This document shows positions 728-45,820 of a stretch of 50,953 nucleotides of DNA, piece after piece. Location: positions 124,001 to 174,953 of IMG/VR virus record IMGVR_UViG_2860317346_000001. The stretch is one strand, 5' to 3'. Position 1 is the first letter of the stretch. Each line of letters begins with the position of its first letter. Under the pieces are notes generated by a model. That model did no database searches. It saw nothing but the letters and a program-made list of their open reading frames with translations, and had not been told where the DNA came from. The translations under genes were made by a program, and so were the position numbers. This DNA comes from an uncultured virus (IMG/VR IMGVR_UViG_2860317346_000001). Its lineage: Duplodnaviria > Heunggongvirae > Uroviricota > Caudoviricetes.

Positions 728-764
728 ATATCTTTTCTTTCTTTTATTTTATATAAATCTATAT

Positions 765-820
765 AAAAAAAATCATCATCACGATATCCGAATACAGCTC
801 GCCACGTAGCTCTCCACACT
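765..820 (+). promoter_or_regulatory. Conserved upstream motif, copy 3
   Basis: CATCATCACGATATCCGAATACA at 774-796; ACACT at 816. Confidence 0.7.
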
Positions 821-1387: not shown

Positions 1388-1652
1388 TTTCTTATTTTTA
1401 TAGGCTAATCACCCGCCATATTAGGAATATAATTTTCACCTGACACTATTTTATGATGGTAATAAATGTTATTTTATTACCTATTCTTTATCAATCAATC
1501 ACGACTGCTGCGCTGGTTTGGTGAACGTCATTTAAAGCTGCGCTTTAAATAGAAACGAAGCTGAAACAGTAGGGCACGTGTGCGGTTGAACGAGAATACG
1601 AATCAAAACAAACCACATTAAAACAAACAGTACAAACAAACAGGTGAACAAT

Positions 1653-2426
1653 ATGTTTTCAAACCTCTTCGGAATGGACAATACAGGTAAAGACAATGGA
1701 GCAGCAGTAGCTGCGGACAATAACGATAATATCAAACGTACCTATGACGCAATGGTACAAGCAACTGGAAACGTTGCTGTACACCATAAATATGCGGATT
1801 TCAGTGAGAAACCTCTCGGCTGGAACTTCGGTATCTCAATGGACGAATCAAAATTAGAACACCAAAGAGTCATCAAGTCATTCGACTGTATGGCACACAA
1901 AATAGTAGACAAAAGGTACACCTCGTGTGCCGTAATGCACGAAACAGGTCAGTGGATTGGCCGAGAAATCGCAAACGGTAACATAAAACCAGAAACGATG
2001 AAAGCAATCTATGGTGACGACGTTGTAAAAGCGTCAGAACACGAAGTGAAAGTACTCATGCGAAGTAGTGGCGTAGAACTAAATGACAGAAGATTGGAAG
2101 CAGCAATCGCAGCTTGGCCATTAACAGGATACGTACCAAACGGTGCGCCTATCATAAACGCTAACGCCATGATAGGCGTTATGAACGAAGGATTAATCGA
2201 ATTATACGACCAATACTGGGGTCAGGTGTATGAACTGGTCGCAAGGTCAAACAACAGACGACCGAGTGGAAAATCTATCCTTGTGTCGAAATGCAACTTA
2301 ATGACGTACGATGACCTCAATGTGGCAATGTCGGCAGCTCAAACAACTAAAACTAAAAAGAAAGACACTGGAAACGATATATTCGGTGGAATCATTGGAG
2401 GAACAAGTTCGTTGTTCGGATTGTAA
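1653..2426 (+). CDS. Hypothetical protein (upstream of RNAP genes)
   Basis: Long ORF; AGGTGA RBS puts the start at ATG 1653. Confidence 0.85.
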   Translation: MFSNLFGMDNTGKDNGAAVAADNNDNIKRTYDAMVQATGNVAVHHKYADFSEKPLGWNFGISMDESKLEHQRVIKSFDCMAHKIVDKRYTSCAVMHETGQWIGREIANGNIKPETMKAIYGDDVVKASEHEVKVLMRSSGVELNDRRLEAAIAAWPLTGYVPNGAPIINANAMIGVMNEGLIELYDQYWGQVYELVARSNNRRPSGKSILVSKCNLMTYDDLNVAMSAAQTTKTKKKDTGNDIFGGIIGGTSSLFGL

Positions 2427-2437
2427 AGGTGGTTCAA

Positions 2438-2830
2438 ATGCGTATCGAAACAATGAAAACACCAGGAATGTTTGATACTATGTCCGCAAGTGACATGGTA
2501 TCGCTGCTGTACGCAATACGTGCAGCAGTACATACCCAACTTAACTGGAAGTCATTCCAGACGCAAATACAACACGGGAATATCTTCGCTCGTGTAATAT
2601 TCGAAATGGACAATTTCGACGAAATCATAAAGAAGATAACGCTACCCGCAACGGAAGCTCTGCCGTATGAACAGATGAAATCATACCCACGAAACAGTCA
2701 GACGCCGGTCAGATTGGTAGTGGAACCAGAGTATTCTGGGCTCAAAGAAATCGTTGAGCTCATATACTTACGAGCAAGGAAGTTACAATTCAACGTGACA
2801 GACGCGGATAGCGTCTATGAATTCGCATAA
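2438..2830 (+). CDS. Hypothetical protein (candidate RNAP-associated)
   Basis: AGGTGG RBS before ATG 2438; adjacent to the RNAP genes. Confidence 0.8.
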   Translation: MRIETMKTPGMFDTMSASDMVSLLYAIRAAVHTQLNWKSFQTQIQHGNIFARVIFEMDNFDEIIKKITLPATEALPYEQMKSYPRNSQTPVRLVVEPEYSGLKEIVELIYLRARKLQFNVTDADSVYEFA

Positions 2831-2884: not shown

Positions 2885-4534
2885 ATGAACAGATTCAGCT
2901 CAATCGTAGCTGTGCGTGAAGACGCACTCCAATTATTTCAGATAGCTAAAAACGCTAAACACACTGGTGTCGTGCAGAAGCATGACAGGTTCGGAAAATA
3001 CAACAGGTTCCTTCCCGGAACCCACGATACGATGAAACGGTTCGTCATTGACGACCTCATCAAAAGACGGCTGCATAACTCGATTTATGCGAAGGCGAGT
3101 GTAAACAATGACCTCGCCGATGACGAAATGGGTGTACCAAAAACTTTATCGGAGACAATTCCGGTAAAAGTGTTAAACGTAGAAGACGCAACGGAAGTAG
3201 TCTTCAAAACCGGAGAGTTCGATTCCGGTAAATTCAAACACAAAAAGATACAGGACTACGTAGAAGGTAGACATTTCTACCCAGGTAACGTAGTTCGGGT
3301 GAACGATGCGTTGTTCATCGTAAGTAGTGACGGTACGTTTGAAGAAGAAATCGTACCAGTGGTACTCCTTAGACGGGGTGTGAAAGACGGTGACGAAGTT
3401 ATTATAATCCGCCACCCCGTAAAAGCACTGAATACCATTCTTCACAAGAAAGTGAAAATCGTGGACACCGGAGACGTTAAACAGTACGTATTACAGTTTA
3501 CGAACGTAACAATAAAATACATCGAAGGAGACTTCGATGGTGATGCGGTAAATGCACTATTCTTCGATTCACTTCACGCAGACGTAGATATAGATAAACC
3601 AGCTGAAAAAGCCGGTAAACCAACAATCAGGCTAGACAAGAAACTACCACCCGTAGCTGAAAGTACAATGAATAGACTGGATGTTTCGGCGATGTTAAAC
3701 ATCGAGGAACCAGTACCATTCATCCTAGCGATATCAAAGTCCATCATGGGTCACCAGTTGGATATCGATGATGTTAAGAAATACATATCCGATTGTCGAA
3801 TTTCGGTATTACTTAACCAAATAATACTATACCCGATAGCACGAAAAGCTATCGAGTTACAAGATGGAGCACGATTAAGGTACCTTGCACAGAAATACGA
3901 TATGAAAATGAACATCCCAGATGGGATGGACGCTGTAGTAGACTACGATTACGCAAATGAAGAACGCATGAGCGAGAACATGGAAATGTTCATCAGGTGC
4001 TACTTCAAGGGCTACGGCCCAAAGTTGAGTGGCTACGTACAGAAACTTCTACTCGATGTTAGTGGAAACTTCAGTATCGAGGACAATAAACTGTTATACA
4101 GAGGGGACACTGTATACACGGACAGAGAACTTAGAGGTAAACACCTTATCGAGGTCATCGAACTGATAAACGCCCTTCAACAGGACGTTATCGGACTGAA
4201 ACATATAGATGCGCCGTTGTCAAATTTGGACAGAGCATACGCATTACAGCGATTGTTCCAGTCTAAAACCAAAGTAAAAGCTATCGGTGCCGATGGTTGT
4301 ATACGAATATTCGAAAGCTTCGGGCTCAACAAGTGCGCTGCGAAGATGGCAACGATATGTCTGTACGCAATCACTGGAGCTGAACTTCCAGGTACACCAA
4401 TAGTAAACTGTCATGGAACAAAAGAAAACTTGACGTGGAGCTGGGGTGTAGCGGACAGATTTATCAAAGGCGACATCAGAGAAACACCGATAACGTACGG
4501 TGTGACGAATTTCATTAAACATAATCAAATTTAA
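2885..4534 (+). CDS. Divergent two-barrel RNA polymerase catalytic subunit (beta'/RpoA'-like)
   Basis: KRRLHNS..LADDEMGVP matches GKRVNFS..LSIDEVGVP; DGDEVIIIRHP matches DGDIVLFNRQP; YIEGDFDGDAVN matches YNADFDGDEMN; motifs in the correct order. Confidence 0.85.
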   Translation: MNRFSSIVAVREDALQLFQIAKNAKHTGVVQKHDRFGKYNRFLPGTHDTMKRFVIDDLIKRRLHNSIYAKASVNNDLADDEMGVPKTLSETIPVKVLNVEDATEVVFKTGEFDSGKFKHKKIQDYVEGRHFYPGNVVRVNDALFIVSSDGTFEEEIVPVVLLRRGVKDGDEVIIIRHPVKALNTILHKKVKIVDTGDVKQYVLQFTNVTIKYIEGDFDGDAVNALFFDSLHADVDIDKPAEKAGKPTIRLDKKLPPVAESTMNRLDVSAMLNIEEPVPFILAISKSIMGHQLDIDDVKKYISDCRISVLLNQIILYPIARKAIELQDGARLRYLAQKYDMKMNIPDGMDAVVDYDYANEERMSENMEMFIRCYFKGYGPKLSGYVQKLLLDVSGNFSIEDNKLLYRGDTVYTDRELRGKHLIEVIELINALQQDVIGLKHIDAPLSNLDRAYALQRLFQSKTKVKAIGADGCIRIFESFGLNKCAAKMATICLYAITGAELPGTPIVNCHGTKENLTWSWGVADRFIKGDIRETPITYGVTNFIKHNQI

Positions 4535-4556
4535 ACAAACAAACAGGTGTAAGAAC

Positions 4557-5645
4557 ATGTCAAAAATCCTATCCAACATACAAAACATAACTATCATAGA
4601 AAAGGAAACGAATCCAAATATTCGTAACCTTTTATGGAAAAGGGCACTGAACAGTGCCATCACGAATGTGCACTATAACGTCACAACAAGACGAGCATAC
4701 ATCCGAAATGGGAACTACGGAAAAGGACTCGTATCTGAAGAGATACGAGAACCATCATGTGTAGTCGTGCCAGTTGCACACTTAAACGTGTACGACTGCG
4801 CAGAAGATATCTTTATCGTGAATGACAGCACGATGAAGGAAGAAATCAAGGTCACGAAAGTACATGTGCTAGAGAAAGACACATGTACAGTAATGAGCGG
4901 TGACAAGGTCACAAAAGGTCAGACCATCGCTTACAGGGAAGAGCCGTACTACCAAGTCGGCTCGAAACTTGATGGTGTTGTCGAAGTCATCAGAACGGTG
5001 TTCGACGAAAGAGTGGTAATCACCCAGACATTCAGACTCGCTGATACAATCGGCGTAAAGATGATTGGGTACGATGCCCAGAAGGGAACAACGATTCTCG
5101 GTCACGACAGATTCGAAATCGTTGATAAACAACCAGACGCAGACATGAAAGCTTCATTCGAAGCAAATGGTATCGAAGTACTACCGATACCAGAAGACTT
5201 CAATCAGATATCAATCGTAGGTGACGCTGATTCGATATTGAAACGCGAATCGAGTGGGTATCTCGCAAACATATCCCTGGGGATGAAACACGATACCTAT
5301 CGTGAACCTGAATGGGACAGCTACAGGCACGTGTACGCTGGGAAGGTCTTGGACAAGAAGACAGGAACCGTACATGACGCGATAGTCGGTATCGCAACGT
5401 TCGTGGTCGGAGAACAAACTCCGAACTACGAACTAAAAGTACCTAAGTCCACACACGAATTGATTGGGCGAGCAAACGCCGCTCCATCAACGGATATCTT
5501 TAGCCAGTACTTCATGGCTGCGAAGTACCCAGAGGACATTAACAGAATTCTCGGAAACGAGATAATCGATTGTATCGATTGGGATGAGGTGTCGCGACAC
5601 GGTAAGATGATTACTGGACAGGAAATCGCGGTGTCATTCAAATGA
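4557..5645 (+). CDS. Divergent two-barrel RNA polymerase second subunit (beta/RpoB C-terminal-like)
   Basis: YDCAEDIFIVN matches GYNQEDAIIIN; GVKMIGYDAQKGT matches GDKFASRHGQKGV; IVGDADSILKRESSG matches IIINPHAIPSRMTIG; LDKKTG matches YDGRTG. Confidence 0.8.
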   Translation: MSKILSNIQNITIIEKETNPNIRNLLWKRALNSAITNVHYNVTTRRAYIRNGNYGKGLVSEEIREPSCVVVPVAHLNVYDCAEDIFIVNDSTMKEEIKVTKVHVLEKDTCTVMSGDKVTKGQTIAYREEPYYQVGSKLDGVVEVIRTVFDERVVITQTFRLADTIGVKMIGYDAQKGTTILGHDRFEIVDKQPDADMKASFEANGIEVLPIPEDFNQISIVGDADSILKRESSGYLANISLGMKHDTYREPEWDSYRHVYAGKVLDKKTGTVHDAIVGIATFVVGEQTPNYELKVPKSTHELIGRANAAPSTDIFSQYFMAAKYPEDINRILGNEIIDCIDWDEVSRHGKMITGQEIAVSFK

Positions 5646-6094
5646 TACACCTCATTCCATCTAACCATACACAATTTGCCAGAACAATGGAGCGTCTGGA
5701 AACGCTACCAGATATCGATATAATGCTACTCGAAATGAACTTCAAAACCGCAATCAAGGTTGCGTTATATACGAAGTTATTCGGTAAAACATTCTATCGT
5801 GACCAATACGCTGGTTATGTGTACGCAAAACGTCGTGGCGTACAGTGTCAACTGATGTTGGACGAAAATTGTTCAACACCAAGTTCATCATTCTTCCCGA
5901 ACGGAGTTGAAACTAACGACTTATCGTTTAACGAAGAACTCGTAAACCACAAACCCGCGTACAATAAGATGATTGAACGCGCAATCAAAGCCTACGGCGA
6001 TAGAAATGCGGCTGTCGTTGTAGGAAGTGCACATACAGCACACATCGTACGGATGTGTAAAGAAAACGGAATCGACTACACTGTAGTCGCTTAA
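5642..6094 (+). CDS. Hypothetical protein, TraB/ChaN/EreA-like motifs
   Basis: Overlaps the upstream stop (ATGA); LLEM and VVVGSAH motifs. Confidence 0.5.
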   Translation: MIHLIPSNHTQFARTMERLETLPDIDIMLLEMNFKTAIKVALYTKLFGKTFYRDQYAGYVYAKRRGVQCQLMLDENCSTPSSSFFPNGVETNDLSFNEELVNHKPAYNKMIERAIKAYGDRNAAVVVGSAHTAHIVRMCKENGIDYTVVA

Positions 6095-6110
6095 ACGTTT
6101 GAGGGGAAAC

Positions 6111-6770
6111 ATGATAGAAGTGGAACACAAGTATCGTGGACTAGTGGACGACGTTGACATAGTTACAGGTCGTACAGCTGAACTCATCACAGAAGATGAC
6201 AACAGAATGCTAATCTCTGGTTCGAAAAGGTTCGAGAGCGTGATGAACACGTTCATGGACCATAAACCGGTTACTATACGTAATCAAACACAGAAAGACG
6301 ACTTTATCAAAGCGGTATTCAATACCAAACTAGATAACATCGTCGCAAGAATCTTGTTCAGTAAATCAGAAAACGGTGAGGTCGGAGAATTCTCGACAAC
6401 CAGAATGTGTAACTGGTTTCGCAGCAATTACACGTGGAAAAAGCGTGATGACCACACCGTAGTAGACCCTATAACGTTCTTCAAAGAACGTACAGGCGTC
6501 TGTGCGGACGCAACAATGTTCATGTTAAAGACGATACCAAACAATTATCGGTATCTTCTACAGAGAACACCAAGAGGTGGAAAAGCAGGACACGTCGCAG
6601 CAGGTATACGATTTGACAAGAACATATTGGTGCTCGACCAAACCAGTAAATACATGCTACGTGACAGAATCGGTGATTTCGACGTCATGTACGGCATGAA
6701 CATGCAAGATAGAACAGTAGCAATGTTAAACTTGCATACGAACGAAATCATCAAAACAGTACAGATGTAA
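6111..6770 (+). CDS. Transglutaminase-like (Cys-His-Asp) cysteine protease domain protein
   Basis: GVCADAT...GHVAAG...VLDQT triad motifs. Confidence 0.7.
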   Translation: MIEVEHKYRGLVDDVDIVTGRTAELITEDDNRMLISGSKRFESVMNTFMDHKPVTIRNQTQKDDFIKAVFNTKLDNIVARILFSKSENGEVGEFSTTRMCNWFRSNYTWKKRDDHTVVDPITFFKERTGVCADATMFMLKTIPNNYRYLLQRTPRGGKAGHVAAGIRFDKNILVLDQTSKYMLRDRIGDFDVMYGMNMQDRTVAMLNLHTNEIIKTVQM

Positions 6771-7086
6771 ACGTGATTGGGCAAAAACGCTCAATCGTTT
6801 TATTTTTTTTTCGTAAATTTCCAAAAACAATGTACGTTTGAAAAATTTGAAACGTACACGATTGCTTGTTTGAATTTCTTCGCAAATACATGTATGTCTA
6901 AAACAGCTTTCGTGTATTCGCGAGTACAAAATGGAGAGAACCAGCATTTTCGCAAGATGTCAGTTCGTTTTTCGTTGTTAGGTGACTCACCTTGGGAGTA
7001 CATCTGCGGTAATTTGCTGGCTAAATGAACGCTGGACTAGCTCATATATAAACGCTTTCGTAAATTTTATTTTTTTTATAAAATAG

Positions 7087-7134
7087 TACACCACCTTACA
7101 CTAACTTACACTACCTTACACCACCCTACACCAC
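7087..7134. repeat. Five 10-bp tandem repeats (TACACYAMYY)
   Basis: tacaccacct tacactaact tacactacct tacaccaccc tacaccac. Confidence 0.85.
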
Positions 7135-7281
7135 AACGCGTGATAAATCACGCTTAGCCAATTTTTTCACTTCTCTCGCCTTGAAGCGCATTTTTATATC
7201 ACACTCACACGCACACGGCACCAAAAACCAAATCAAGGCGCATATAAGTGGTATACCGACAGGTATACAGTGAATAGACTA

Positions 7282-7452
7282 AGTGATATACATGGTACAG
7301 TGGTATAGTGATATACCTAGCCGTGTATACACGTATAACAGTGATACAATGATACATGTAGAACCGTATACTAGTGATATACCTACATTAGGTAGGTATG
7401 TACATACATAGAACTGTATATCAGTGATACAATGATACAATGAACCATATAC
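7282..7452. repeat. Cluster of short dispersed repeats (AGTGATATAC x3, CAGTGATACAATGATAC x2, GAACYRTATA x3)
   Basis: Read directly in a non-coding region. Confidence 0.75.
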
Positions 7453-7492
7453 TATATGAAATAGCTACGATGTGTAGCGATACGGTGAGAAA

Positions 7493-7876
7493 ATGAAAAC
7501 AATAATATTAGATTTTATAAAAACACATGACATCAACCTACCGATTAAAGACGAAGACATACACGACGTCTACGATAAGATGATGGATACACCTACTATC
7601 CAAGCAGGACTATTCGCGCTACTAGGTGATGTATCTAGTGAATATAAACGGTGTCCGCACTGCCAAAGCGTTATCAACACGCTTATACAGGAATATGGGG
7701 CAGGTGCACAATGTGAATGTAAACTGGGTGAAGACGGCGACATGGACTTTGGTGAAACGCTACCAGGTGATGCATCAACGGAATCATATAACTGTCCAGC
7801 GTGTGGTAGAGTGATATGTACCCACGATGACGACGCCGTGGCGTTTTTCAAAACGGGTATAGCTGAAGTAGAGTGA
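7493..7876 (+). CDS. Zn-ribbon protein
   Basis: CPHC...CPACG; GGTGA RBS. Confidence 0.75.
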   Translation: MKTIILDFIKTHDINLPIKDEDIHDVYDKMMDTPTIQAGLFALLGDVSSEYKRCPHCQSVINTLIQEYGAGAQCECKLGEDGDMDFGETLPGDASTESYNCPACGRVICTHDDDAVAFFKTGIAEVE

Positions 7877-10783: not shown

Positions 10784-11095
10784 ATGGATTTACAACGCGC
10801 TTTGGACTACCTCGCGGACATGGGCGAGGTAAGAATTCGTAAGGACCACTTAGGGCACCCGTACCATGTCAGGGTGCAGGACCCGAATGGTAACCTCGGT
10901 TATCACGACGGAGCAGATGATAACGTAGAAGACGCTATCAAAGATTGTCTCGGTAACATATACGAAGAATTAGACGACTACATCGAAGGGTACAAAGCCC
11001 AACAGGACGATGTTAACGCGGTACTTAACGCTAAAGGTGTACCTAAAACGAGAGTTATACCCTACAGCGTTAGGATACCACTGAAGAAAAAGTGA
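10784..11095 (+). CDS. Tandem paralogue 1 (HicB-N-like motif)
   Basis: YLADMGEVRI...GADDNVEDAI. Confidence 0.75.
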   Translation: MDLQRALDYLADMGEVRIRKDHLGHPYHVRVQDPNGNLGYHDGADDNVEDAIKDCLGNIYEELDDYIEGYKAQQDDVNAVLNAKGVPKTRVIPYSVRIPLKKK

Positions 11096-11099
11096 TATA

Positions 11100-11387
11100 A
11101 TGGAAGGAATGGAAGAACAACAAGAAATGGAGACGTTAGAGAAGATGATGACGTTCCTCGCGCAGTATGGTGGTATCGTAATCGATTACAACGCCAATAA
11201 GCTTGAAGCGTACAGGTACAAGATAACCACGACTGACCCGTTCGCTGCGAACAAGAAGCGAGTAGGTCAAGGTGCTACACTAAGAGAAGCATGTGAGCAC
11301 ATACTTACAGGGATACACAGTACGTATACATCCATTAGGGATAATACCTCTAACGTCGTGTCAAGAATAGAAGGTATGAAACAATGA
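11100..11387 (+). CDS. Tandem paralogue 2 (HicB-N-like motif)
   Basis: FLAQYGGIVI...GQGATLREA. Confidence 0.75.
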   Translation: MEGMEEQQEMETLEKMMTFLAQYGGIVIDYNANKLEAYRYKITTTDPFAANKKRVGQGATLREACEHILTGIHSTYTSIRDNTSNVVSRIEGMKQ

Positions 11388-11638
11388 ACGTAGAGAAGCT
11401 TATAGAACACCTTGCCCCTATCGGGCCTATCATCATCAAGCAAATGGGTGATGGTAACATACACGTAAACGTCGGCTCTGGTATAGAAAGTGTAGGCGGT
11501 GTAGGTAAGGGCCTTGTCTCGGCGTTACAAGATGTCAGTAGACGAGTAAGGAGAGAACACTTTGAAGCGGCTACCTCGCATAATGCTATGGTAAGCGGTA
11601 TAGACCAGTACGTTAACGAAGGTGAAGATGATGAATGA
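11384..11638 (+). CDS. Tandem paralogue 3
   Basis: HLAPIGPIII...GVGKGLVSA. Confidence 0.7.
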   Translation: MNVEKLIEHLAPIGPIIIKQMGDGNIHVNVGSGIESVGGVGKGLVSALQDVSRRVRREHFEAATSHNAMVSGIDQYVNEGEDDE

Positions 11639-11897
11639 AGACGAATATGTAAGTAAAGTGATGGGTTTCGCTGTAGGTAGCGGACAAGTCTCAGGTACCT
11701 GCGATAGTATATACGGTAAGTGGAAGTACACACTCACATGTAACGACGAAACACTTCACAAGGAACACATTGGTATTGCCGATACACTTGAGGGTGCCGC
11801 TGAGAAACTTACGGCTAACATAAAACAAGCATACGTGAACATTGAAAGTGTTTCACAAAAGCTTGTAGCAACGATTGATGACATAAATGCACAGTAA
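11631..11897 (+). CDS. Tandem paralogue 4
   Basis: GIADTLEGAA; GGTGA RBS. Confidence 0.7.
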   Translation: MNEDEYVSKVMGFAVGSGQVSGTCDSIYGKWKYTLTCNDETLHKEHIGIADTLEGAAEKLTANIKQAYVNIESVSQKLVATIDDINAQ

Positions 11898-12105
11898 ATC
11901 ACACTTGTCAGACGCTCTACAGTGAGGGTTGACATATGTGTACGTTCGTTTTAGAAGGTCTCACAACGATGACCACGACCAATATTATATTAACATGAAG
12001 ATGTATAATCATACGAAGTCTTACGACAAGGGGGTAGTGGTGTATATTCGTAATATCCGACACTATTACATCGTCGTTGTGACAGCGTAATGTAATGGTG
12101 ATGGG

Positions 12106-12333
12106 ATGTTCAACATAGTTTTCAGAAAAAAAGTATCATACGTACTCATGATACTTGCGATATGGTGTATCTGTATGTACTTACACCACGTTAATTTGAT
12201 AAATGGCGAGTACTATACGACACTATTAAACGGATACATTATAGTGATGGCTATGACCATGACATACAACGCGTATGAGTATGCTGTTGTTGTAGACGTT
12301 AACTCAAACTTGTCAAAACGGAAGAGGGATTAA
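12106..12333 (+). CDS. Small membrane protein
   Basis: Two hydrophobic segments, GGTGA RBS. Confidence 0.6.
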   Translation: MFNIVFRKKVSYVLMILAIWCICMYLHHVNLINGEYYTTLLNGYIIVMAMTMTYNAYEYAVVVDVNSNLSKRKRD

Positions 12334-12336
12334 TAT

Positions 12337-12537
12337 ATGGTTGAAGAACGAACGTGTGAAAACTGCAAACACTTTAGAGCGAAAAATAAGAAAGGTATGC
12401 CCGAAGGTATCAAATCCATAACGTTTTTACTCACAGCGTGGGTTATATCGGTTGCACAATACGGCTGGACCAGTTTGTGGGCTCTAACAATCCTCGCGTG
12501 TATAATTTTGGTGTTACACAAAGGTAATTTAGAATGA
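12337..12537 (+). CDS. Small membrane protein with CxxCxH
   Basis: CENCKHF plus two TM segments. Confidence 0.6.
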   Translation: MVEERTCENCKHFRAKNKKGMPEGIKSITFLLTAWVISVAQYGWTSLWALTILACIILVLHKGNLE

Positions 12538-12759
12538 ATTCGGCAGGTTTAACAATACTGTTAATACTTAGGGACATGATGTACCTATGTCTGTGGAATG
12601 TGGTGCTACATATGTCACTTAGGTACATACGTATGTGTCGACATGACTAGGGTAAGGTATATATACTCACCATTACCACCTCATACACAATTACAAAGTA
12701 CATCAAAACGTAGATGGACGTGCGAGACACGAGAATACGGTACTCTGTTCACCTAATTA

Positions 12760-13108
12760 AACGGAAAACCAGCTTGGCTATGCACCACGGGATGTCATAG
12801 TGTAGACGAGCAGCCTGTCGGGACCTCCCATCGGCTCGCAACATAGATTGCGTTGAGGATGACAACGGTCTAAGCCGGGGCTGTCGTAGATAGTTGAAAG
12901 CGGTAAACATACTTGAGGTTACGGTCGTTTCGAACTGTCGATTCGTAAGCTAGCACACTAGAAGTGTAGTGTTGTGTTAGTAACGCCGGGAATCAAGTGA
13001 TATCGATACAAACAAGCGAAATACCTGTTAACACTTTACCGAAACTCTAACAGGAAGCAAGCATCTAGTTTTATGTGATTAGCACATAAGATTAGAGTAT
13101 ATTTTTTT
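12760..13108 (+). ncRNA. Putative large structured RNA ending in a terminator hairpin
   Basis: No long ORF, GC-richer, several stems; 14-bp hairpin 13064-13096 followed by a T-tract. Confidence 0.5.
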
Positions 13109-13321
13109 TACGTTTTATATATAATTATAGCGCGAAGCGCCCAATGCGAGTGCAACGAGGTGTGAGTTGACGAACACCGAGTGGGCAACGCAACGAGTTA
13201 TTTAAAATATAATAATACAACGACAAACTTGGAGTAAAAAGAACTAAAGTTCCGTACGTATACCAACGAACACAACGTACGTCAAATTGCTCAGGAGTAT
13301 AAACTTTTTTCAGGTGTTTTT

Positions 13322-13762
13322 GTGAAGTGTCAAAAGTGCGGTAGCGATAGCTTTACTTACGGTTCGATGGAGCCGGAAGACGATTGTATCGTTCAATCGA
13401 TTGAATGTGACAATTGTAAAGAAGAATATACACTCGTAGCGTATCCTAATTGGCAGGTGGAAGGTCAAGAGAACTTTTTATTTAATGTATTCGCGAAAGC
13501 TGATATGGTTAGGGACGTACAACTAGCAACGTATTCACCGACGTGTCCTAATAATTGTGATACGTGTAAAAAGTATGTCTGTGAAAACTGGGTGGATATA
13601 CCGGATAATGATGTATTATTAGGTAAAGTCCGAGCGAAAAATGCGGACGAAGCGATTAAATTCTTCGTACAACAAGTCGGGATACACAACACCGACAACA
13701 TGTACGCTGAAATTGTAGATGAACAAGCTACAGAAATTTTTCAGAAACCGTCAGAACAATAA
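13322..13762 (+). CDS. Zn-ribbon / Cys-rich protein
   Basis: CQKC...CDNC; CPNNCDTCKKYVC. Confidence 0.75.
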   Translation: MKCQKCGSDSFTYGSMEPEDDCIVQSIECDNCKEEYTLVAYPNWQVEGQENFLFNVFAKADMVRDVQLATYSPTCPNNCDTCKKYVCENWVDIPDNDVLLGKVRAKNADEAIKFFVQQVGIHNTDNMYAEIVDEQATEIFQKPSEQ

Positions 13763-13815
13763 AATTTATTTACTATCTACAAAATGGAAAAAATAACAAC
13801 ACGTAAGGTGATTAG

Positions 13816-14445
13816 ATGGAACATATAGAAACTGTAAACTTAAGCGCTATGATGGGCGATGCTGAAGGTGAGACTGGTGATGTAAACGTACCTACAGCTG
13901 TACCTGAAGGTGAAAAAGCTGCGACAACTGGAACGGCTACACCAAGTATTTCACTTGAATCAACAAACGAAGCAACGAACTCGATTGATGAAAGTGTAGA
14001 GGAAAACGTAGAAGGCGAAATCGTTATTGAAGTTGTACCAGAAGATAAAGGTGAAGAAATCACCAACGGTGCCGAATACGGTGTAGTGGTTGGTGGTGAA
14101 GTGGTAGTTAAAGAAATTGACATCGACTGGCATGAATTCGGTATGCCGAACGCGGCTGTGAAAAGGATTATGAAGTCTGTATCTGACGATAAGAATATTT
14201 CAGCTGACGCGGTTGAAAAGATGAAATCGTTAGCAATCGAATACATTATGGGTGTTACAAAAGATGCGAACGCTAGGTGTGAAGCTAAGAAAAGAAAGAC
14301 CATTATGGACAGAGATATCGAAGATACAGCAAACGGTATGCTATCGGATAAACTCTTAAGTATGGCGAGTAAGTCCGTGAAAGTGGAACTACTAACTAAC
14401 GAATTCGTGAAAACGATAGCAACTGAAATTGCAAACGTACAATAA
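13816..14445 (+). CDS. Archaeal histone-fold protein with long acidic N-terminal extension
   Basis: MPNAAVKRIMK...ISADA...KRKTIMDRDIE aligns with HMf-type histones; fold starts near 14143. Confidence 0.85.
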   Translation: MEHIETVNLSAMMGDAEGETGDVNVPTAVPEGEKAATTGTATPSISLESTNEATNSIDESVEENVEGEIVIEVVPEDKGEEITNGAEYGVVVGGEVVVKEIDIDWHEFGMPNAAVKRIMKSVSDDKNISADAVEKMKSLAIEYIMGVTKDANARCEAKKRKTIMDRDIEDTANGMLSDKLLSMASKSVKVELLTNEFVKTIATEIANVQ

Positions 14446-17331: not shown

Positions 17332-17404
17332 GCTCCTGTGGCGCAGTAGGTAGCGCGTCGGACTGTTAATCCGAAGGTCGCAGGTTCGAGCCCTGCCGGG
17401 AGCG
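17332..17404 (+). tRNA. tRNA-Asn(GTT)
   Basis: Canonical cloverleaf; anticodon arm TCGGA-CTGTTAA-TCCGA. Confidence 0.95.
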
Positions 17405-17783
17405 CTTAAACACGGTCCGCAGTTAAGTTTGCGGAAATAGTAGGCATTTATCTCCAAAAAATGTTTTCTTAACTTCTTCTATAGGTAATATAACTCTAAA
17501 ATACTTTAATCTTGTTTCTCTCAAAATAACACATACAGCGGTACACACTGTAATGGGTGGGTGTACCGCCTATTAATTTAAGTCTGTTGACAAACATGTC
17601 ATATCATATCACTTCCAATCGTGTGGTTCTTTTTACCCGGTGAGACGGTTTTTGGACCACACATGAATATTTTTTATGGCGTTCGTAAAACGCACGGGTT
17701 TCTCTTTTTACCGTGCGTTTGCCGTCATGATACGATACTATTGAGAATGTATAAATACACCCGGTGTAACCCACCGGGGTTTT

Positions 17784-17854
17784 GATGACGTGGTCTAGTT
17801 AGGTTTGGGCTCCCGTGCGAACGGGGACAATGGGTTCGACTCCCATCGTTATCA
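17784..17854 (+). ncRNA. tRNA-like RNA with the anticodon loop replaced by a GCGA tetraloop
   Basis: Acceptor GATGACG/CGTTATC, T arm ATGGG-TTCGACT-CCCAT, stem CCCGT-GCGA-ACGGG. Confidence 0.75.
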
Positions 17855-18061
17855 CTGTTCTTTTCAGTTTATTGGGTCGGTTAATAAATTTAGACACCAA
17901 CGTGAGTCAAATCACGAGCCGACTGCGAAAACCACGACTTCGCAATACAAAATCGTGGCCGGAAATGGTGTTATTCACACTACCTTTCTGAAAGGTTTTG
18001 TTGTTTTGTCACGTTACAACTAAATGAAACGTGGTGGTGTCGAACATACCCTTTCCACCCT

Positions 18062-18325
18062 CGGCGTGTAGTTCAGAGGTAGAACAGTGGACTGTAGAGT
18101 GTATGGAATCACAATCTAATCAAAAGTATAAATCTAAATCTAAATATAACGAAAAATTAAAATTAAAAGTAAGAAGATAAATGTAGATATGAATCGAAGT
18201 AATGAATTGCTATTTATTATGTTCGTACAAACATAAAAATCATAGTTAAATTAAATAATGTTTCAAACAGTGATTCTATACATGCAGAAATCCACATGTC
18301 ACCGGTTCAAGTCCGGTCACGCCGA
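18062..18325 (+). tRNA. tRNA-Tyr(GTA) with 192-nt BHB intron (18098-18289)
   Basis: Exons form a full cloverleaf; helix CTGT/GCAG with AGA and AAA bulges; 14-bp intron stem. Confidence 0.9.
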
Positions 18326-18341
18326 CTTCTGTTATTACTTT

Positions 18342-18474
18342 TGACGTGTACCCTCAAAGGTAGAGGGGCTGATGCCGATATAATGTCCTAGACGCTAGAA
18401 CGTAGAACGTAACTAGTGCGCGTGGCATGAATCAAACCAGCAGGTTATAGGTTCAAGTCCTATCACGTCAACCA
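18342..18474 (+). tRNA. tRNA-like RNA with ~60-nt anticodon insertion and encoded CCA; isotype unclear
   Basis: TGACGTG/CACGTCA-ACCA; T arm ATAGG-TTCAAGT-CCTAT; no clean BHB. Confidence 0.65.
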
Positions 18475-18479
18475 TTTTC

Positions 18480-18613
18480 CGGCGCGTAGCTCAACAAGGT
18501 AGAGTAGCGGTGGGTTGTAATATACGTGTTTCCCGCGATTCGTAATCTACGGTTACGTGGGATAGCGTGTACGTAGATACCGCAGGTTGCAGGTTCAATT
18601 CCTGTCGCGTCGA
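18480..18613 (+). tRNA. tRNA-like RNA with long hairpin insertion in the anticodon loop; isotype unclear
   Basis: CGGCGCG/CGCGTCG; anticodon stem GCGGT/ACCGC; T arm GCAGG-TTCAATT-CCTGT. Confidence 0.7.
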
Positions 18614-18663
18614 CCTTTTCTTTAAATATTATGGTGTATTAGCGTTAGCTATGGTGGTTATAT

Positions 18664-23591: not shown

Positions 23592-25100
23592 ATGGAAAGT
23601 TATAAAGTTAAAAACTTCATCAAGGCGATAGCCGAGAAGCTCTTACCGGGATTAGTCGACTCGTACAAGTTTACGCATTTTTTAGGTTATCCACCGGATA
23701 CCGAGTATGTATACCTGTACATGATGGCCCGACCTAACAGTGAAATGACCAAATCGGAACAAGTCGTGTTTTTCGGACTGCAGTACTACATCAAGGAATA
23801 CCTTGAAGGTGTAGTAGTAACGCACGAAATGATTGACGAGTTAGCTCCAATGATAAGAGCTTACGGATACCCACAATTTAACGAAGAAGGTTGGAGATAC
23901 ATTGTTGACAACCACGGTGGAAAGTTACCGGTTGAAATTAAAGCGGTACCGGAAGGAAGCTACGTTAATAGGGGTAACGTGTTGATGTCAATTGTCAATA
24001 CCGACCCGAAATGTTACTGGTTACCATCATACTTGGAAACGTTGTTGCTAGAGATGTGGTACACCTGTACAGTGGCAACCCACGCTAAAGAACTTAGAAG
24101 CTTAATCGAACCTTACGTGCAGGAATCATGTGACGATTTATTCGACATCAACTTCAAAGTGCACAATTTCGGTGCGAGGGCTGGACCAGCTCCTGAAGCC
24201 ACGAGACTTGCAGGTATGGCGCACTTAACGTCATTCGTTGGAACTGATACCTTCGATAGCGTTTATGCTGCGAAAAAGTATTACAACGAGGATAACGCCG
24301 GTATTTCAATCAGCGCGGCAGAACACAGTACCATCACATCATGGGGTACTGGTAAAGCTAACGAAACCGCAGCGTACGCTAACATGCTTGATAAATTCGG
24401 ACACGAGCCGTTGTTCGCTTGTGTTAGTGATTCATACGATTACGAGTATGCAGTTGAGCACATCTGACTCGGTGAGTTAAAAGAAAAATTGTTATCTGTA
24501 CCAGCAAAGCTTATCATAAGACCTGACAGTGGTGACCCTGTACAATCAACGATATTCGCCGTTGATATGATACTTGAAAAACTTGGGTACGAATACAACC
24601 AAAAAGGCTACAAAATAGCTAAAGGTGACAAAGCCGGTGTTATACTTGGTGATTCTGTAACACCTAGAGTTATTCAAGAAGTTATGTCGTACTTAATGGA
24701 AAACAAAATCAGTGCGTCGATGGTTAACTTCGGTATGGGTGGTGCACTAATGACTGGTGATAAAACCAGAGATACATACGGTTTCACAATGAAGTGTTCA
24801 GCTGTATGTAGGGATGGTAGCTGGTATGAGTGTTTCAAGATGCCTAAAGGTAGTGCATTCAAAACTTCACTTGGTGGTATGTTCCACGTTGTTAAAGACA
24901 TGGGATTCTATCACACTACGGTTAATCATACCGATGAAGAATGCGACGAATTACAAACTGTATTCAAAAATGGTGTTATTGTAAGAAACGAAACGTTAAC
25001 CAACATCAGAAACAGGTTAAGTAGTGAAATAATTCTCGGTATGAGTAGGACCGATAAAGAAGCTAGAGAAGTTCCAACCGAAGTGGCGCAACCGTGTTAA
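23592..25100 (+). CDS. nadV: Nicotinamide phosphoribosyltransferase interrupted by in-frame TGA at 24465-24467
   Basis: DSYK, FFGLQY, HNFGARA, AAEHS, VSDSYD, IRPDSGD, FGMGG; both ORFs are in the same frame. Confidence 0.85.
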
Positions 25101-26472: not shown

Positions 26473-27414
26473 GTGAACCCACGTAACGCATGCATGGGTG
26501 GATTTGGTAAATGTCTCGATGTGTATTTTACACCTCATTGTAATGGTAGTTGTAAATTCTGCATCGAATCCAACGGTTATAAACCAGAACCACTACGTAC
26601 CAACGTAGATGCTATGATTAAAGCGACAAACGCATTACCATCGTATCACGATATATTGATACTTGGTGGTGAACCAACGACAAATATGTCAGAATTGATG
26701 TATTATCTTCGTGGTATCCATAGGCGTGGTAAGAATTTGTTTCTTACAACGAATGGAAGTCATCTTACGGTTGAAAATGCAGCTTTTTTGTCGATATACC
26801 TTAAAGCTATCAACATTTCGATACACCACCACGATATGGCGCAAAATAAAGACATTACCGGCGTTGAATTAAACGTGGAAAACTTACGTAAATGTGTAAA
26901 TATGTTTACGTCGCATAACGTTGATGTTAGGGTTAACTGCAATCTCATACCCGGTTATATTGACAATAAAGAAGATGTACACGCGATGGAAAAATTCGCG
27001 TATAACATCGGTGCGACAGCAATCAAATTCTCGGAACTGCAGCACTGTGATGAATACGCTGATGCTAAAAACTGTTTCGATTACCCGTTAAGCGATGACC
27101 CGTTCAAACAAGGTTGTCAAGTGACGTTTAATGGTAAACATATACCTATAACTGTACACCAGACCTGTGGGTTCGTAAATAAAAACAAACCCAGACCAAA
27201 TTACAAAGGTCCGTCGTATTCACGAACAAAAGTTCTATACTACAACGGTAAAGTGTATGATGGTTGGGTATCGTACAAAAAACAGGATTCGGATAACGAA
27301 TTGATGCATATAGTGGATGGTATTGCGAAGAAAACGCCGATACCCGCTAGTGATGAAAACGAATCACCGTATGAATGCCACAACCGTATAAGGGGCTGCT
27401 TCAGTTGCCACTAA
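26473..27414 (+). CDS. Radical SAM protein
   Basis: CNGSCKFC (CxxxCxxC), ILGGEPT, LTTNG, NISIH. Confidence 0.9.
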   Translation: MNPRNACMGGFGKCLDVYFTPHCNGSCKFCIESNGYKPEPLRTNVDAMIKATNALPSYHDILILGGEPTTNMSELMYYLRGIHRRGKNLFLTTNGSHLTVENAAFLSIYLKAINISIHHHDMAQNKDITGVELNVENLRKCVNMFTSHNVDVRVNCNLIPGYIDNKEDVHAMEKFAYNIGATAIKFSELQHCDEYADAKNCFDYPLSDDPFKQGCQVTFNGKHIPITVHQTCGFVNKNKPRPNYKGPSYSRTKVLYYNGKVYDGWVSYKKQDSDNELMHIVDGIAKKTPIPASDENESPYECHNRIRGCFSCH

Positions 27415-40955: not shown

Positions 40956-41053
40956 TTATTTTCATTTATTATTTGCCCCAATACAAACAACCAAAACTTA
41001 ACAAATGTGTTATTTTTTTTACAACGTGTTGGTGGGGCCCAACATATTAACGT

Positions 41054-41125
41054 GGACGTATGGTGTAATGGATAGCATACTAGCCTGCGGAGCTTGAGAT
41101 TCGGGTTCGATTCCCGGTATGTCCG
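41054..41125 (+). tRNA. tRNA-Arg(GCG)
   Basis: GGACGTA/TATGTCC acceptor; loop CTGCGGA; T arm TCGGG-TTCGATT-CCCGG. Confidence 0.85.
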
Positions 41126-41242
41126 TTTTATTTTTTTGTAATGTTACAACGTATATATGTAGGCCTGTACATATGTTGCGCTGTATCTATGTTTCACCGT
41201 GTGTAACTTAGTTATGGATTAACCTATTATACGTAGCACCCT

Positions 41243-44954: not shown

Positions 44955-45040
44955 TTACATCGTAGTAACGGCAACGTAATTCTTGCCACTCTATCATAGG
45001 GGTGGGGTGCCGGGGAGGGGATAATTATAGGAGAGAGAAT

Positions 45041-45820
45041 ATGGCCAATGTAGGAAAGAATATCAGTGCAGCTGAAAAGACAGAAATAATCGAAGAAATT
45101 GACCCTAAAGTTTACTTCGAAACGTTGAAAGGTCGTGTAAAAACGATGAACGATTCAACGTTAAAACAAGCATACGAGAACGCCTTGGTGTTATATGGTA
45201 AAGCTGACTTCTTTAATCAACACATAACGAAAAAAAAGTTATTATTTAACGTCGAGTGTATGGAATTGGAAAAGAAAGTACTTGCCGTTGGCGTAGATAA
45301 ATACGTACACAAGGATGATATCAAATACTACCTCGACAAAGTGTCTAGGAAAGTCGTAATGTGTGTTGAATTGAGTAACTACGAAAGGGAGATTCCCGAT
45401 GACGTTATGAAAGTTTACGACAAAGTTAAAGATATTTTTGATGATTTTTACGTTGTTTTTACTGATTACACCGAAAACCATAGGAAAACCGCTAAGATTG
45501 AACGTGACCCCATATTGTTTGGTTCGTTTAGGAACAAACAACATAGATTAACACATGATAGGTTTTACTTTATCGCCGACTGGGTGGATGAGTATTGTGA
45601 CCTTACACTCGATAGGATGCTCGTTGAGATGAAAGAAAAAACCGGAAACGATATCTTACACATGGTAACCATTCCGGCGAACATTGACGAGATGCGAAGT
45701 AAAATCGAAATGTTCGATGCAAAACAAATGAAAGAAGATTTAACCCGTAAGAAACCAAAAGGGTTCGGTAAGATTACCACGTTTATCTCAAATTTCTGTA
45801 AACGGGGAGCTACATGGTAA
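45041..45820 (+). CDS. Phage-type hypothetical protein
   Basis: DPILFG...FYFIADWVDEYCDLTLD. Confidence 0.8.
   Translation: MANVGKNISAAEKTEIIEEIDPKVYFETLKGRVKTMNDSTLKQAYENALVLYGKADFFNQHITKKKLLFNVECMELEKKVLAVGVDKYVHKDDIKYYLDKVSRKVVMCVELSNYEREIPDDVMKVYDKVKDIFDDFYVVFTDYTENHRKTAKIERDPILFGSFRNKQHRLTHDRFYFIADWVDEYCDLTLDRMLVEMKEKTGNDILHMVTIPANIDEMRSKIEMFDAKQMKEDLTRKKPKGFGKITTFISNFCKRGATW

Follow-up and report, generated by a model that had tools for sequence, protein, structure and literature searches.

Two adjacent rightward open reading frames (ORFs) near the start of the DNA analysed here carry motifs of the two catalytic barrels of a multisubunit RNA polymerase (RNAP). This DNA, referred to below as the window, comprises the last 50,953 bases of the 174,953-bp virus record IMGVR_UViG_2860317346_000001 of IMG/VR (G000:C1:124001-174953); positions prefixed with C1 are those of the whole record, and all other positions are those of the window. 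The two genes, designated ORF1 and ORF2, lie in different frames with 22 nt between them, and they are listed in Table 1 together with the other features of the locus and with related genes found elsewhere in the virus genome. Their products add up to 911 amino acid residues (aa), far fewer than in cellular large subunits, which bears out the total of about 900 aa and the comparison with much longer cellular subunits given in a first-pass annotation of the same sequence. From the comparisons described below, we consider it likely that ORF1 and ORF2 encode a real and very rare non-virion RNAP of the two-barrel type, split over two polypeptides.

Table 1. Features of the putative RNA polymerase locus and related genes elsewhere in the virus genome
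Feature	Position	Strand	Description
ORF1	2885..4534	+	549 aa; beta'/A'-like catalytic subunit, double-psi beta-barrel A (DPBB-A)
ORF2	4557..5645	+	362 aa; beta/B-like subunit
ORF2 landmarks (residues)			ED (83-84), insert ~95-150, GVKMIGYDAQKG (K168, K176), DADSILKR (R230), LDKKTGTVHDAIVG (D266)
ORF2 ribosome-binding site	4544..4549	+	AGGTGT, 8 nt before ATG
Two upstream ORFs	1644..2830	+	260 aa and 133 aa; no match in Pfam, PHROGs or NCBIfam
Two downstream ORFs	5642..6770	+	150 aa and 223 aa; apparent RNAP transcription unit
41-nt promoter-like element, three copies	29-69, 373-413, 762-802	+	before small ORFs, just upstream of the RNAP unit
ORF-A	C1:60253-61239	+	328 aa; RYP...DGDYDGD
ORF-B	C1:61160-62008	+	282 aa; GDKISNLHGQKG
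Giant ORF	C1:85470-102716	minus	5748 aa; same minus-strand block as the terminase and scaffold genes

Catalytic-barrel motifs of ORF1 and ORF2

ORF1 contains the motifs IKRRLHNS, DDEMGVP, KDGDEVIIIRHP and EGDFDGD (also read as KRRxxxS, DEMGVP and DGDEVIIIRHP), and those of ORF2 are AEDIF, VKMIGYDAQKG, LKRESSG and LDKKTGT. The coordinates, the lengths and all of the motifs quoted for both genes in the first-pass annotation were confirmed in the sequence. The ORF1 product matched the Pfam family PF00623 (RNA_pol_Rpb1_2) with a score of 28.6 bits, above the gathering cut-off of 25.3 (E 2.1e-6), and reached 29.2 bits on the same family in a six-frame search of the genome. Its best match in NCBIfam was the archaeal subunit A' (NF006336, E 3.5e-4), aligned over residues 61-229 (169 residues). 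A phmmer search of 1.84 billion representative proteins identified two true relatives, P0004 (563 aa, 37% identity) and the 277-aa fragment P0005 (35%), and for both of them PF00623 was the top Pfam match, at E 0.004-0.005 and under the cut-off. Two other candidates, P0006 and P0007, were rejected as spurious, being PG_binding and CARDB repeat proteins.

Aspartates of the Mg-binding type at positions 216, 218 and 220 are invariant in all three members of the ORF1 family, with F, M or A between the first two; these are the three Mg-binding aspartates that had been claimed for this protein, and both relatives retain them. The alignment also shows RHPVK and the block EMFxRxYFxxxGPKLSGYVQK as invariant. 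In a search of PDB with the family profile (E <= 10), all five matches were to largest subunits of RNAPs (Pol IV, Pol I and Pol V; E 0.019-0.16), and the best alignment spanned the region from the KR motif to GDxDGD. In a single-sequence phmmer search of PDB, the best match of ORF1, a weak one, was the N-terminal piece of the AR9 beta' subunit (7s01_d, E 0.041), aligned at GDYDGD. With a family match above the gathering cut-off and an aspartate triad kept in three of three members, ORF1 is, as far as homology can tell, the beta'/A'-type catalytic barrel proposed for it. Residues 367-387 (EMFIRxYFKxYGPKLSGYVQK; GPKLSGYVQKLLLD) may be a shortened bridge helix; judged by eye, the GPKLSGYVQK part resembles the C-terminal half of what we take to be the bridge-helix consensus. 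A language-model look-up of residues 240-549 returned mostly Rpb1_5, Rpb1_4 and Rpb1_3 clusters at 0.79-0.84, below the level at which it would count as more than a lead.

The identity of ORF2 was approached through its relatives, one of which is encoded by the same virus. An AGGTGT site precedes its ATG, which indicates that ORF2 is translated as a gene of its own; the AAACAAACAGGTG motif recurs ahead of four genes (repeat family D5). A word-index search of 5.8 billion clusters, a method limited to sequences that have short exact words in common with the query, yielded a single relative, P0003 (361 aa, 37% identity), and K168, Q175, K176, R230, D266, T269 and G270 are common to the two proteins. 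Comparison of the ORF2 family with that of ORF-B, a paralogue from the virus's own genome, gave an hhalign probability of 96.2% (E 2.3e-9, 248 columns), and a direct BLASTP comparison of ORF2 with ORF-B gave E 6e-4. In the five-sequence alignment of both families, D84 of the ED motif, G166, K168, Q175, K176, R230 and D266 are invariant, and the two invariant lysines are spaced eight residues apart, as in GDKxxxxHGxKG. We take these residues to correspond to the active-site positions ED, K1065/K1073 and R1106 of the E. coli beta subunit.

Weak matches of ORF2 and P0003 at residues 90-147 were to barrel-sandwich-hybrid families (RnfC_N, Peptidase_M23 and Biotin_lipoyl), and this insert presumably sits where the cellular beta subunit carries a flap-type insert. 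For ORF2, Rpb2_6 clusters came up at 0.89 in the language-model look-up, which we use as a lead only. ORF2 is probably the beta/B-type partner of ORF1, as originally suggested; this is the most likely assignment given the hhalign match (E 2.3e-9) to a family that passes PF00562. The beta'/beta split appears to be conserved, as the relatives of 563 aa (P0004) and 361 aa (P0003) both come from one Logan contig (6983 bp). P0005 is encoded on a contig of 4684 bp, and P0009, a relative of ORF-B, on one of 12,547 bp. The family of paired proteins is extremely rare and almost unsampled.

Several results weigh against an RNAP assignment. ORF2 alone had no RNAP match in Pfam, PHROGs, NCBIfam or PDB, and its link to RNAP passes through the paralogue ORF-B, whose own Pfam match spans 34 residues. 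Comparison of these shallow family profiles with the single E. coli RpoB and RpoC sequences by hhalign was not significant; the best value (E 0.0032, 25 columns) was obtained with the paralogue only. Profiles of the ORF1 and ORF2 families matched none of four genomes with E <= 10 (AR9, phiKZ, SPbeta and phi14:2). The bridge helix of ORF1 was assigned by eye, and no hidden Markov model matched a bridge helix or trigger loop in this protein. The AlphaFold2 models were unusable, with a mean predicted local distance difference test score of 36.4 for ORF1 (3-sequence alignment) and 35.1 for ORF2 (5-sequence alignment).

Three putative RNA polymerase modules and the apparent transcription unit of the pair

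PF00562 (RNA_pol_Rpb2_6) matches the virus genome once, at C1:61517-61618, within ORF-B (25.1 bits, gathering cut-off 23.4). Directly upstream of ORF-B and overlapping it by 80 nt lies ORF-A, in the same beta'-then-beta order as in ORF1/ORF2, and the products of this second pair total 610 aa. ORF-A is similar to the ORF1 family (hhalign E 2.3e-5; BLASTP E 1e-4). Two relatives of ORF-B were found, P0009 and P0010, and eight of the nine PDB matches of the resulting three-sequence profile (E <= 1) were to RNAP beta/B chains, at E 0.14-0.26. The second pair is located inside a block of nucleotide-metabolism and replication genes.

The third module is found in the product of the giant ORF, which has RHLIDGD...NADFDGD at residues 323-381 (NADFDGD at 375-381), TIEDSILV near residue 1455 and PKLATLGGNKG at 1587. 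It scored 30.2 bits on PF00623 in the genome search and 25.8 bits when a 3000-aa piece was used. Among PHROGs it matched phrog_2987 ("RNA polymerase beta subunit", E 6e-6) and, near the C-terminus, a peptidase (E 8.8e-14), and its three best PDB matches were archaeal Rpo1N/A' chains (E 0.009-0.045). The giant protein looks like a virion RNAP or an RNAP fused to a tape measure protein. Judged by these matches, ORF1/ORF2 is one of three two-barrel modules in the virus genome.

Three copies in one genome, together with extreme divergence, might also be expected if ORF1 and ORF2 were decaying or inactive paralogues of the RNAP module of the giant protein, with no catalytic role. This is very improbable, however: neither reading frame is disrupted, relatives that come from other samples have the same catalytic residues at an overall identity of 35-38%, and the split and the sizes of the two proteins appear to be preserved. 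We also consider it quite unlikely that the pair forms a two-barrel polymerase of another function, for example a replication primase, a QDE-1-like RNA-dependent RNA polymerase or a PolD-like DNA polymerase. PolD and QDE-1 do use two-barrel cores (PMC10770324, PMC7708050, PMC9508822), the second pair lies within the block of nucleotide-metabolism and replication genes, and a scan of 83 ORFs in the window and 107 from the rest of the genome revealed neither a primase nor a replicative helicase. On the other hand, all family-level matches are to subunits of DNA-dependent RNAPs, the virus has its own family-B DNA polymerase (PolB), and a temporal transcription relay accounts for three paralogous modules better than any of these functions does.

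The putative RNAP genes belong to an apparent unit of six ORFs, which lies between terminator-like sites consisting of a hairpin and a T-run at 1363-1387 and 6773-6798. The start of the 150-aa ORF overlaps the stop codon of ORF2 (ATGA), and the 223-aa ORF has a transglutaminase-like DUF553 domain (PF04473, E 5.6e-6). The 260-aa and 133-aa upstream products are candidate accessory subunits or factors. There is thus a real possibility, which we rate at somewhat less than an even chance, that ORF1 and ORF2 form the catalytic core only and that the four neighbouring products or host factors are required for activity. The confinement of all six ORFs between two terminator-like sites, the overlap of the 150-aa ORF with ORF2 and the lack of a recognisable promoter-recognition module in ORF1 and ORF2 point in this direction. 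So does the composition of the split RNAPs of phiKZ and AR9, which contain a non-homologous fifth subunit (PDB 7s01 for the AR9 holoenzyme). Against a larger complex, the neighbours match no known family, no similarity was detected between them and the genes next to the second pair, and single chains of similar total size are described as active alone in the reports on YonO (PMC5467207) and P23-45 gp64 (PMC10770324).

Upstream of the unit, a 41-nt element, TATAAAAAAAA-CATCATCACGnTATACGAATACA, consists of an A-run/TATA-like part followed by CATCATCACGnTATACGAATACA. In addition to the three copies in the window, a fourth lies 312 nt before it; all four are in tandem, each ahead of a small ORF. 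A genome-wide search with the 23-nt core (<= 1 mismatch) found these four copies, all on the plus strand (C1:123689, 124041, 124385 and 124774), and none elsewhere. The repeats, which are candidate early promoters, mark the switch from the leftward gene block, which includes the terminase and scaffold genes, to genes that run rightward. Because the putative RNAP genes are directly 3' of the four repeats, at the start of the rightward block, early expression is suggested. Sigma-70-like promoters number 17, below the 26 expected. At 7028-7493, a 465-nt intergenic region is dense in short direct repeats, with TACACCACCT in tandem and several units containing GTGATACAATG; it may serve as an origin or in regulation.

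Taken as a split RNAP, the pair might work as follows. ORF1 and ORF2 would be the two halves of a miniaturised double-psi beta-barrel DNA-dependent RNA polymerase. ORF1 would provide the beta'/A'-type barrel, in which D216, D218 and D220 would, by homology, hold the catalytic Mg2+, as well as a shortened bridge-helix-like element, LSGYVQKLLLD. The beta/B-type barrel would come from ORF2, with K168, K176 and R230 contacting the incoming nucleoside triphosphate and the RNA 3' end. Both chains would assemble in trans round the active site, possibly with the products of the four small neighbouring ORFs. The early elements could be read by the RNAP of the ejected giant protein or, by way of their TATA-like part, by that of the host. 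Made early, ORF1 and ORF2 would then transcribe later classes of viral genes independently of the host RNAP. Such a programme would resemble the relay from virion RNAP to non-virion RNAP of P23-45, phiKZ and N4.

The virus and its probable host

IMG/VR lists the record as a provirus trimmed out of a longer contig and gives its CheckV completeness as 84%, and a protein database places its proteins on a contig of 207,348 bp. One DNA sample, possibly the source, was listed as containing the sequence, and no RNA sample was. The first-pass annotation spoke of a generic mobile element, which is not borne out: its terminase, scaffold and PolB genes identify it as a tailed virus with a size of 175 kb or more. 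The large terminase subunit TerL matches phrog_2 (E 8.7e-15), and a head scaffold protein (phrog_673) as well as matches to virion structural and tail proteins are encoded in the genome; a major capsid protein and a portal were not identified among the annotations of the virus genome. In addition to PolB, the virus encodes NrdD with its activase, an ATP-dependent ligase, ThyA, a dCTP deaminase-RNase H fusion and three AAA/VWA pairs. By sequence identity the virus has no close kin among catalogued phages: its PolB reaches no more than 27% identity with PolBs of cyanophages and haloarchaeal viruses, and TerL is ~25% identical to terminases of Streptomyces phages, the nearest in the phage collection.

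Some of these and other genes have features of their own. In the three AAA/VWA pairs (C1:5582-8290, 11038-14251 and 53325-55386), an AAA ATPase (phrog_1297) is followed by a VWA/metallopeptidase-like protein (DUF2201, phrog_1314), and the three ATPases are paralogues of one another (BLASTP E 4e-20). A Tad2-like (anti-Thoeris) domain is joined to a guanylate kinase at C1:30700-31599. Within the window, a nicotinamide phosphoribosyltransferase is divided between two adjacent ORFs of 291 aa (23592-24467) and 203 aa (24489-25100), which account for the N- and C-terminal portions of a single family model; the gene may be split or interrupted, or there may be a frameshift. The best NCBIfam match of a radical SAM protein at 26473-27414 is MoaA, below its cut-off, and the second best is prokaryotic viperin (E 1.2e-12), far below the cut-off.

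We think that the host is quite probably an archaeon, methanogen-like or another euryarchaeon. The archaeal origin proposed in the first-pass annotation stands as far as gene content and signals go, from which the host is deduced. ThyA scores 210 bits on the NCBIfam model TIGR03283 (thy_syn_methano; cut-off 174.55) and no more than 59 bits on other ThyA models, and the TIGR03283 cut-off was exceeded in two of 14 control genomes. The virus also encodes an EarA-family protein (77.8 bits), a family present among the 14 controls only in Methanocaldococcus and Sulfolobus, a histone-fold protein matching archaea_histone, which among the controls was found only in three euryarchaeal genomes, and a Hjc-type resolvase. 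Neither EarA nor archaea_histone occurred in any of the ten bacterial control genomes. The histone-fold protein itself (209 aa, 13816-14445) has the archaeal-type fold at residues 110-169, preceded by an N-terminal extension of ~110 aa without a family match.

Translation signals and tRNA genes were considered as well. GGTGA is found upstream of 41 of 207 ORFs, compared with 2% of random background positions, and GGTG upstream of 76 of 207, while GGAGG and AGGAG precede two ORFs each; starts were those of the longest ORF, and the true fractions with a ribosome-binding site are probably higher. A Leu-like tRNA gene at 18480-18613 has a 60-nt insertion in the anticodon arm, which we assume to be too short for a group I intron. 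It is the third of three tandem tRNA-like units ~145 nt apart (18190-18615), a region that also gave weak YrlA-like matches; Rfam and the intron mode of ARAGORN call only this third unit as a tRNA, and a bulge-helix-bulge was not demonstrated. Further tRNA genes are tRNA-Asn(GTT) at 17332-17405 (66% GC, compared with ~38% for the genome), an odd tRNA with a shortened anticodon loop at 17784-17855 and tRNA-Arg(GCG) at 41053-41126.

Other observations weigh against an archaeal host. The nearest matches of TerL are to phages of Streptomyces, Microcystis and other bacteria (137 records, ~25% identity). A 272-aa protein encoded at 45002-45820 (PHROG 10081, "transposase"; no Pfam match) is 38-43% identical to proteins of Firmicutes phages, namely Bacillus SPbeta-like phages, phiCD211 of Clostridioides and Staphylococcus/Enterococcus phages. 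Terminators with a hairpin and a T-run are typical of bacteria, and terminator-like sites of this kind are enriched (22 found, 8.1 expected). The TATA pattern TTTAWATA is not enriched, with 26 occurrences on the plus strand and 31 expected per strand. No spacer match, no flanking host DNA and no related provirus came to light. Relatives of the ORF1 family and of NrdD were not found in one genome per GTDB species, nor were relatives found in scans of IMG/VR and JGI metagenomes; these blanks are weak because only a few peptide patterns were scanned.

Most of these observations, along with the Tad2-like domain, would suit a jumbo-type phage of a bacterium that has non-canonical RNAPs and has acquired its archaeal-looking genes horizontally, in which case the enzyme assignment would still be right. 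We regard a bacterial host as unlikely, however, in view of the methanogen-type ThyA, the absence of EarA and archaea_histone from the bacterial controls, the scarcity of GGAGG and AGGAG relative to GGTGA and the tRNA with its insert. Moreover, the cellular proteins that ORF1 and the giant protein match best come from archaea or eukaryotes and not from bacteria, and the matches of PolB include haloarchaeal tailed viruses.

Significance and comparison with known RNA polymerases

To our knowledge, 610 aa is less than the size of any active two-barrel RNAP, and whatever the host, the 911-aa and 610-aa pairs are among the smallest candidates of this type. If they are active, they would provide a natural minimum for the requirements of a beta'/beta-type active site, and split mini pairs would be natural material for finding the dispensable elements of the universal active site. 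Two accounts from 2017 and 2021 state that archaeal viruses encode no RNAP (PMC5569661; bioRxiv 10.1101/2021.07.29.453957), in agreement with the first-pass annotation, and no later exception was found in full-text searches of one open-access library. If the host is archaeal, this would be the first RNAP reported for an archaeal virus. A broader proposal, to which we give close to, and not quite, an even chance, is that this is the first archaeal virus with its own transcription machinery, consisting of three two-barrel RNAPs (one fused into a giant virion protein and two split mini-enzymes) that arose by independent capture and drastic miniaturisation of the archaeal RNAP core. Three RNAP modules in what is probably a methanogen virus would refute the view that archaeal viruses encode none, would imply a host-independent transcription relay in archaea and would extend the relay from virion RNAP to non-virion RNAP from bacterial phages to archaea.

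The closest precedent is the Thermus phage P23-45. As described for it (PMC10770324), a virion RNAP forms the N-terminus of the 5002-aa tape measure protein gp96 and transcribes pre-early genes, including that of the small non-virion RNAP gp64, and gp64 and gp96 are ancient paralogues. Like P23-45, the present virus has a giant, apparently virion protein (5748 aa) with an N-terminal DFDGD two-barrel RNAP and a peptidase further on, and small, highly divergent non-virion two-barrel RNAPs that are apparently paralogous to the giant one. The giant protein also weakly matches the "tape tail measure protein" chains of P23-45 (8h2n_A and 8h2m_A, E 0.15-0.24). The first-pass annotation suggested that the pair may represent an undescribed transcription system, and this overstates the case because a scheme with a giant-protein RNAP and small non-virion RNAPs has already been described, at least in outline, for P23-45. 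There are differences, too. The P23-45 enzymes are single chains with DPBB-B before DPBB-A, as the same source gives them, whereas the small enzymes here are each encoded by two genes in the order A then B, an order that the giant protein shares. The present virus has two small pairs where P23-45 has one small enzyme, its host is probably archaeal and not Thermus, and its RNAPs have no significant sequence similarity to those of P23-45.

Split RNAPs of jumbo phages total ~2500 aa in four or five subunits and are much larger than the 911 aa of ORF1/ORF2. Those of AR9/PBS2 and phiKZ are similar to the pair in that virus-encoded beta/beta'-type enzymes are distributed over separate polypeptides (PDB 7s01). 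Apart from the weak match of ORF1 to 7s01_d, neither homology of ORF1/ORF2 to the four split pieces of these enzymes nor a counterpart of the fifth subunit was found. YonO of the Bacillus prophage SPbeta, an enzyme of ~100 kDa whose homology to multisubunit RNAPs is confined to the surroundings of the active site (PMC5467207), is likewise minimal and phage-encoded, although it is a single chain. A tblastn search of 50,697 phage records with ORF1 and ORF2 gave no match. The giant, virion-packaged two-barrel RNAP gp66 of phi14:2, a crAss-like phage (PDB 6VR4), is conceptually comparable to the 5748-aa protein. It is placed in a QDE-1-like clade in PMC10770324, whereas the giant protein described here best matches archaeal Rpo1N.

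Likeness to archaeal RNAP is seen at the level of motifs: the giant protein shares RHLIDGD...NADFDGD with Sulfolobus Rpo1N, and ORF-B has HGQKGT, which we take to be the archaeal/eukaryotic form of the motif. Compared with archaeal Rpo1N (A'; 880 aa, plus A'') and Rpo2 (B; ~1120 aa), the products of ORF1 and ORF2 are drastically shorter (549 aa and 362 aa); only the barrels and perhaps a remnant of the bridge helix appear to be left, the gene order is reversed, with the beta'-like gene first, and no other RNAP subunits were recognised in the virus. As candidates, these enzymes belong to a known kind, the virus-encoded two-barrel RNAPs; what would be new is the split mini-architecture, the reversed barrel order, the presence of three modules in one genome and the probable archaeal host.

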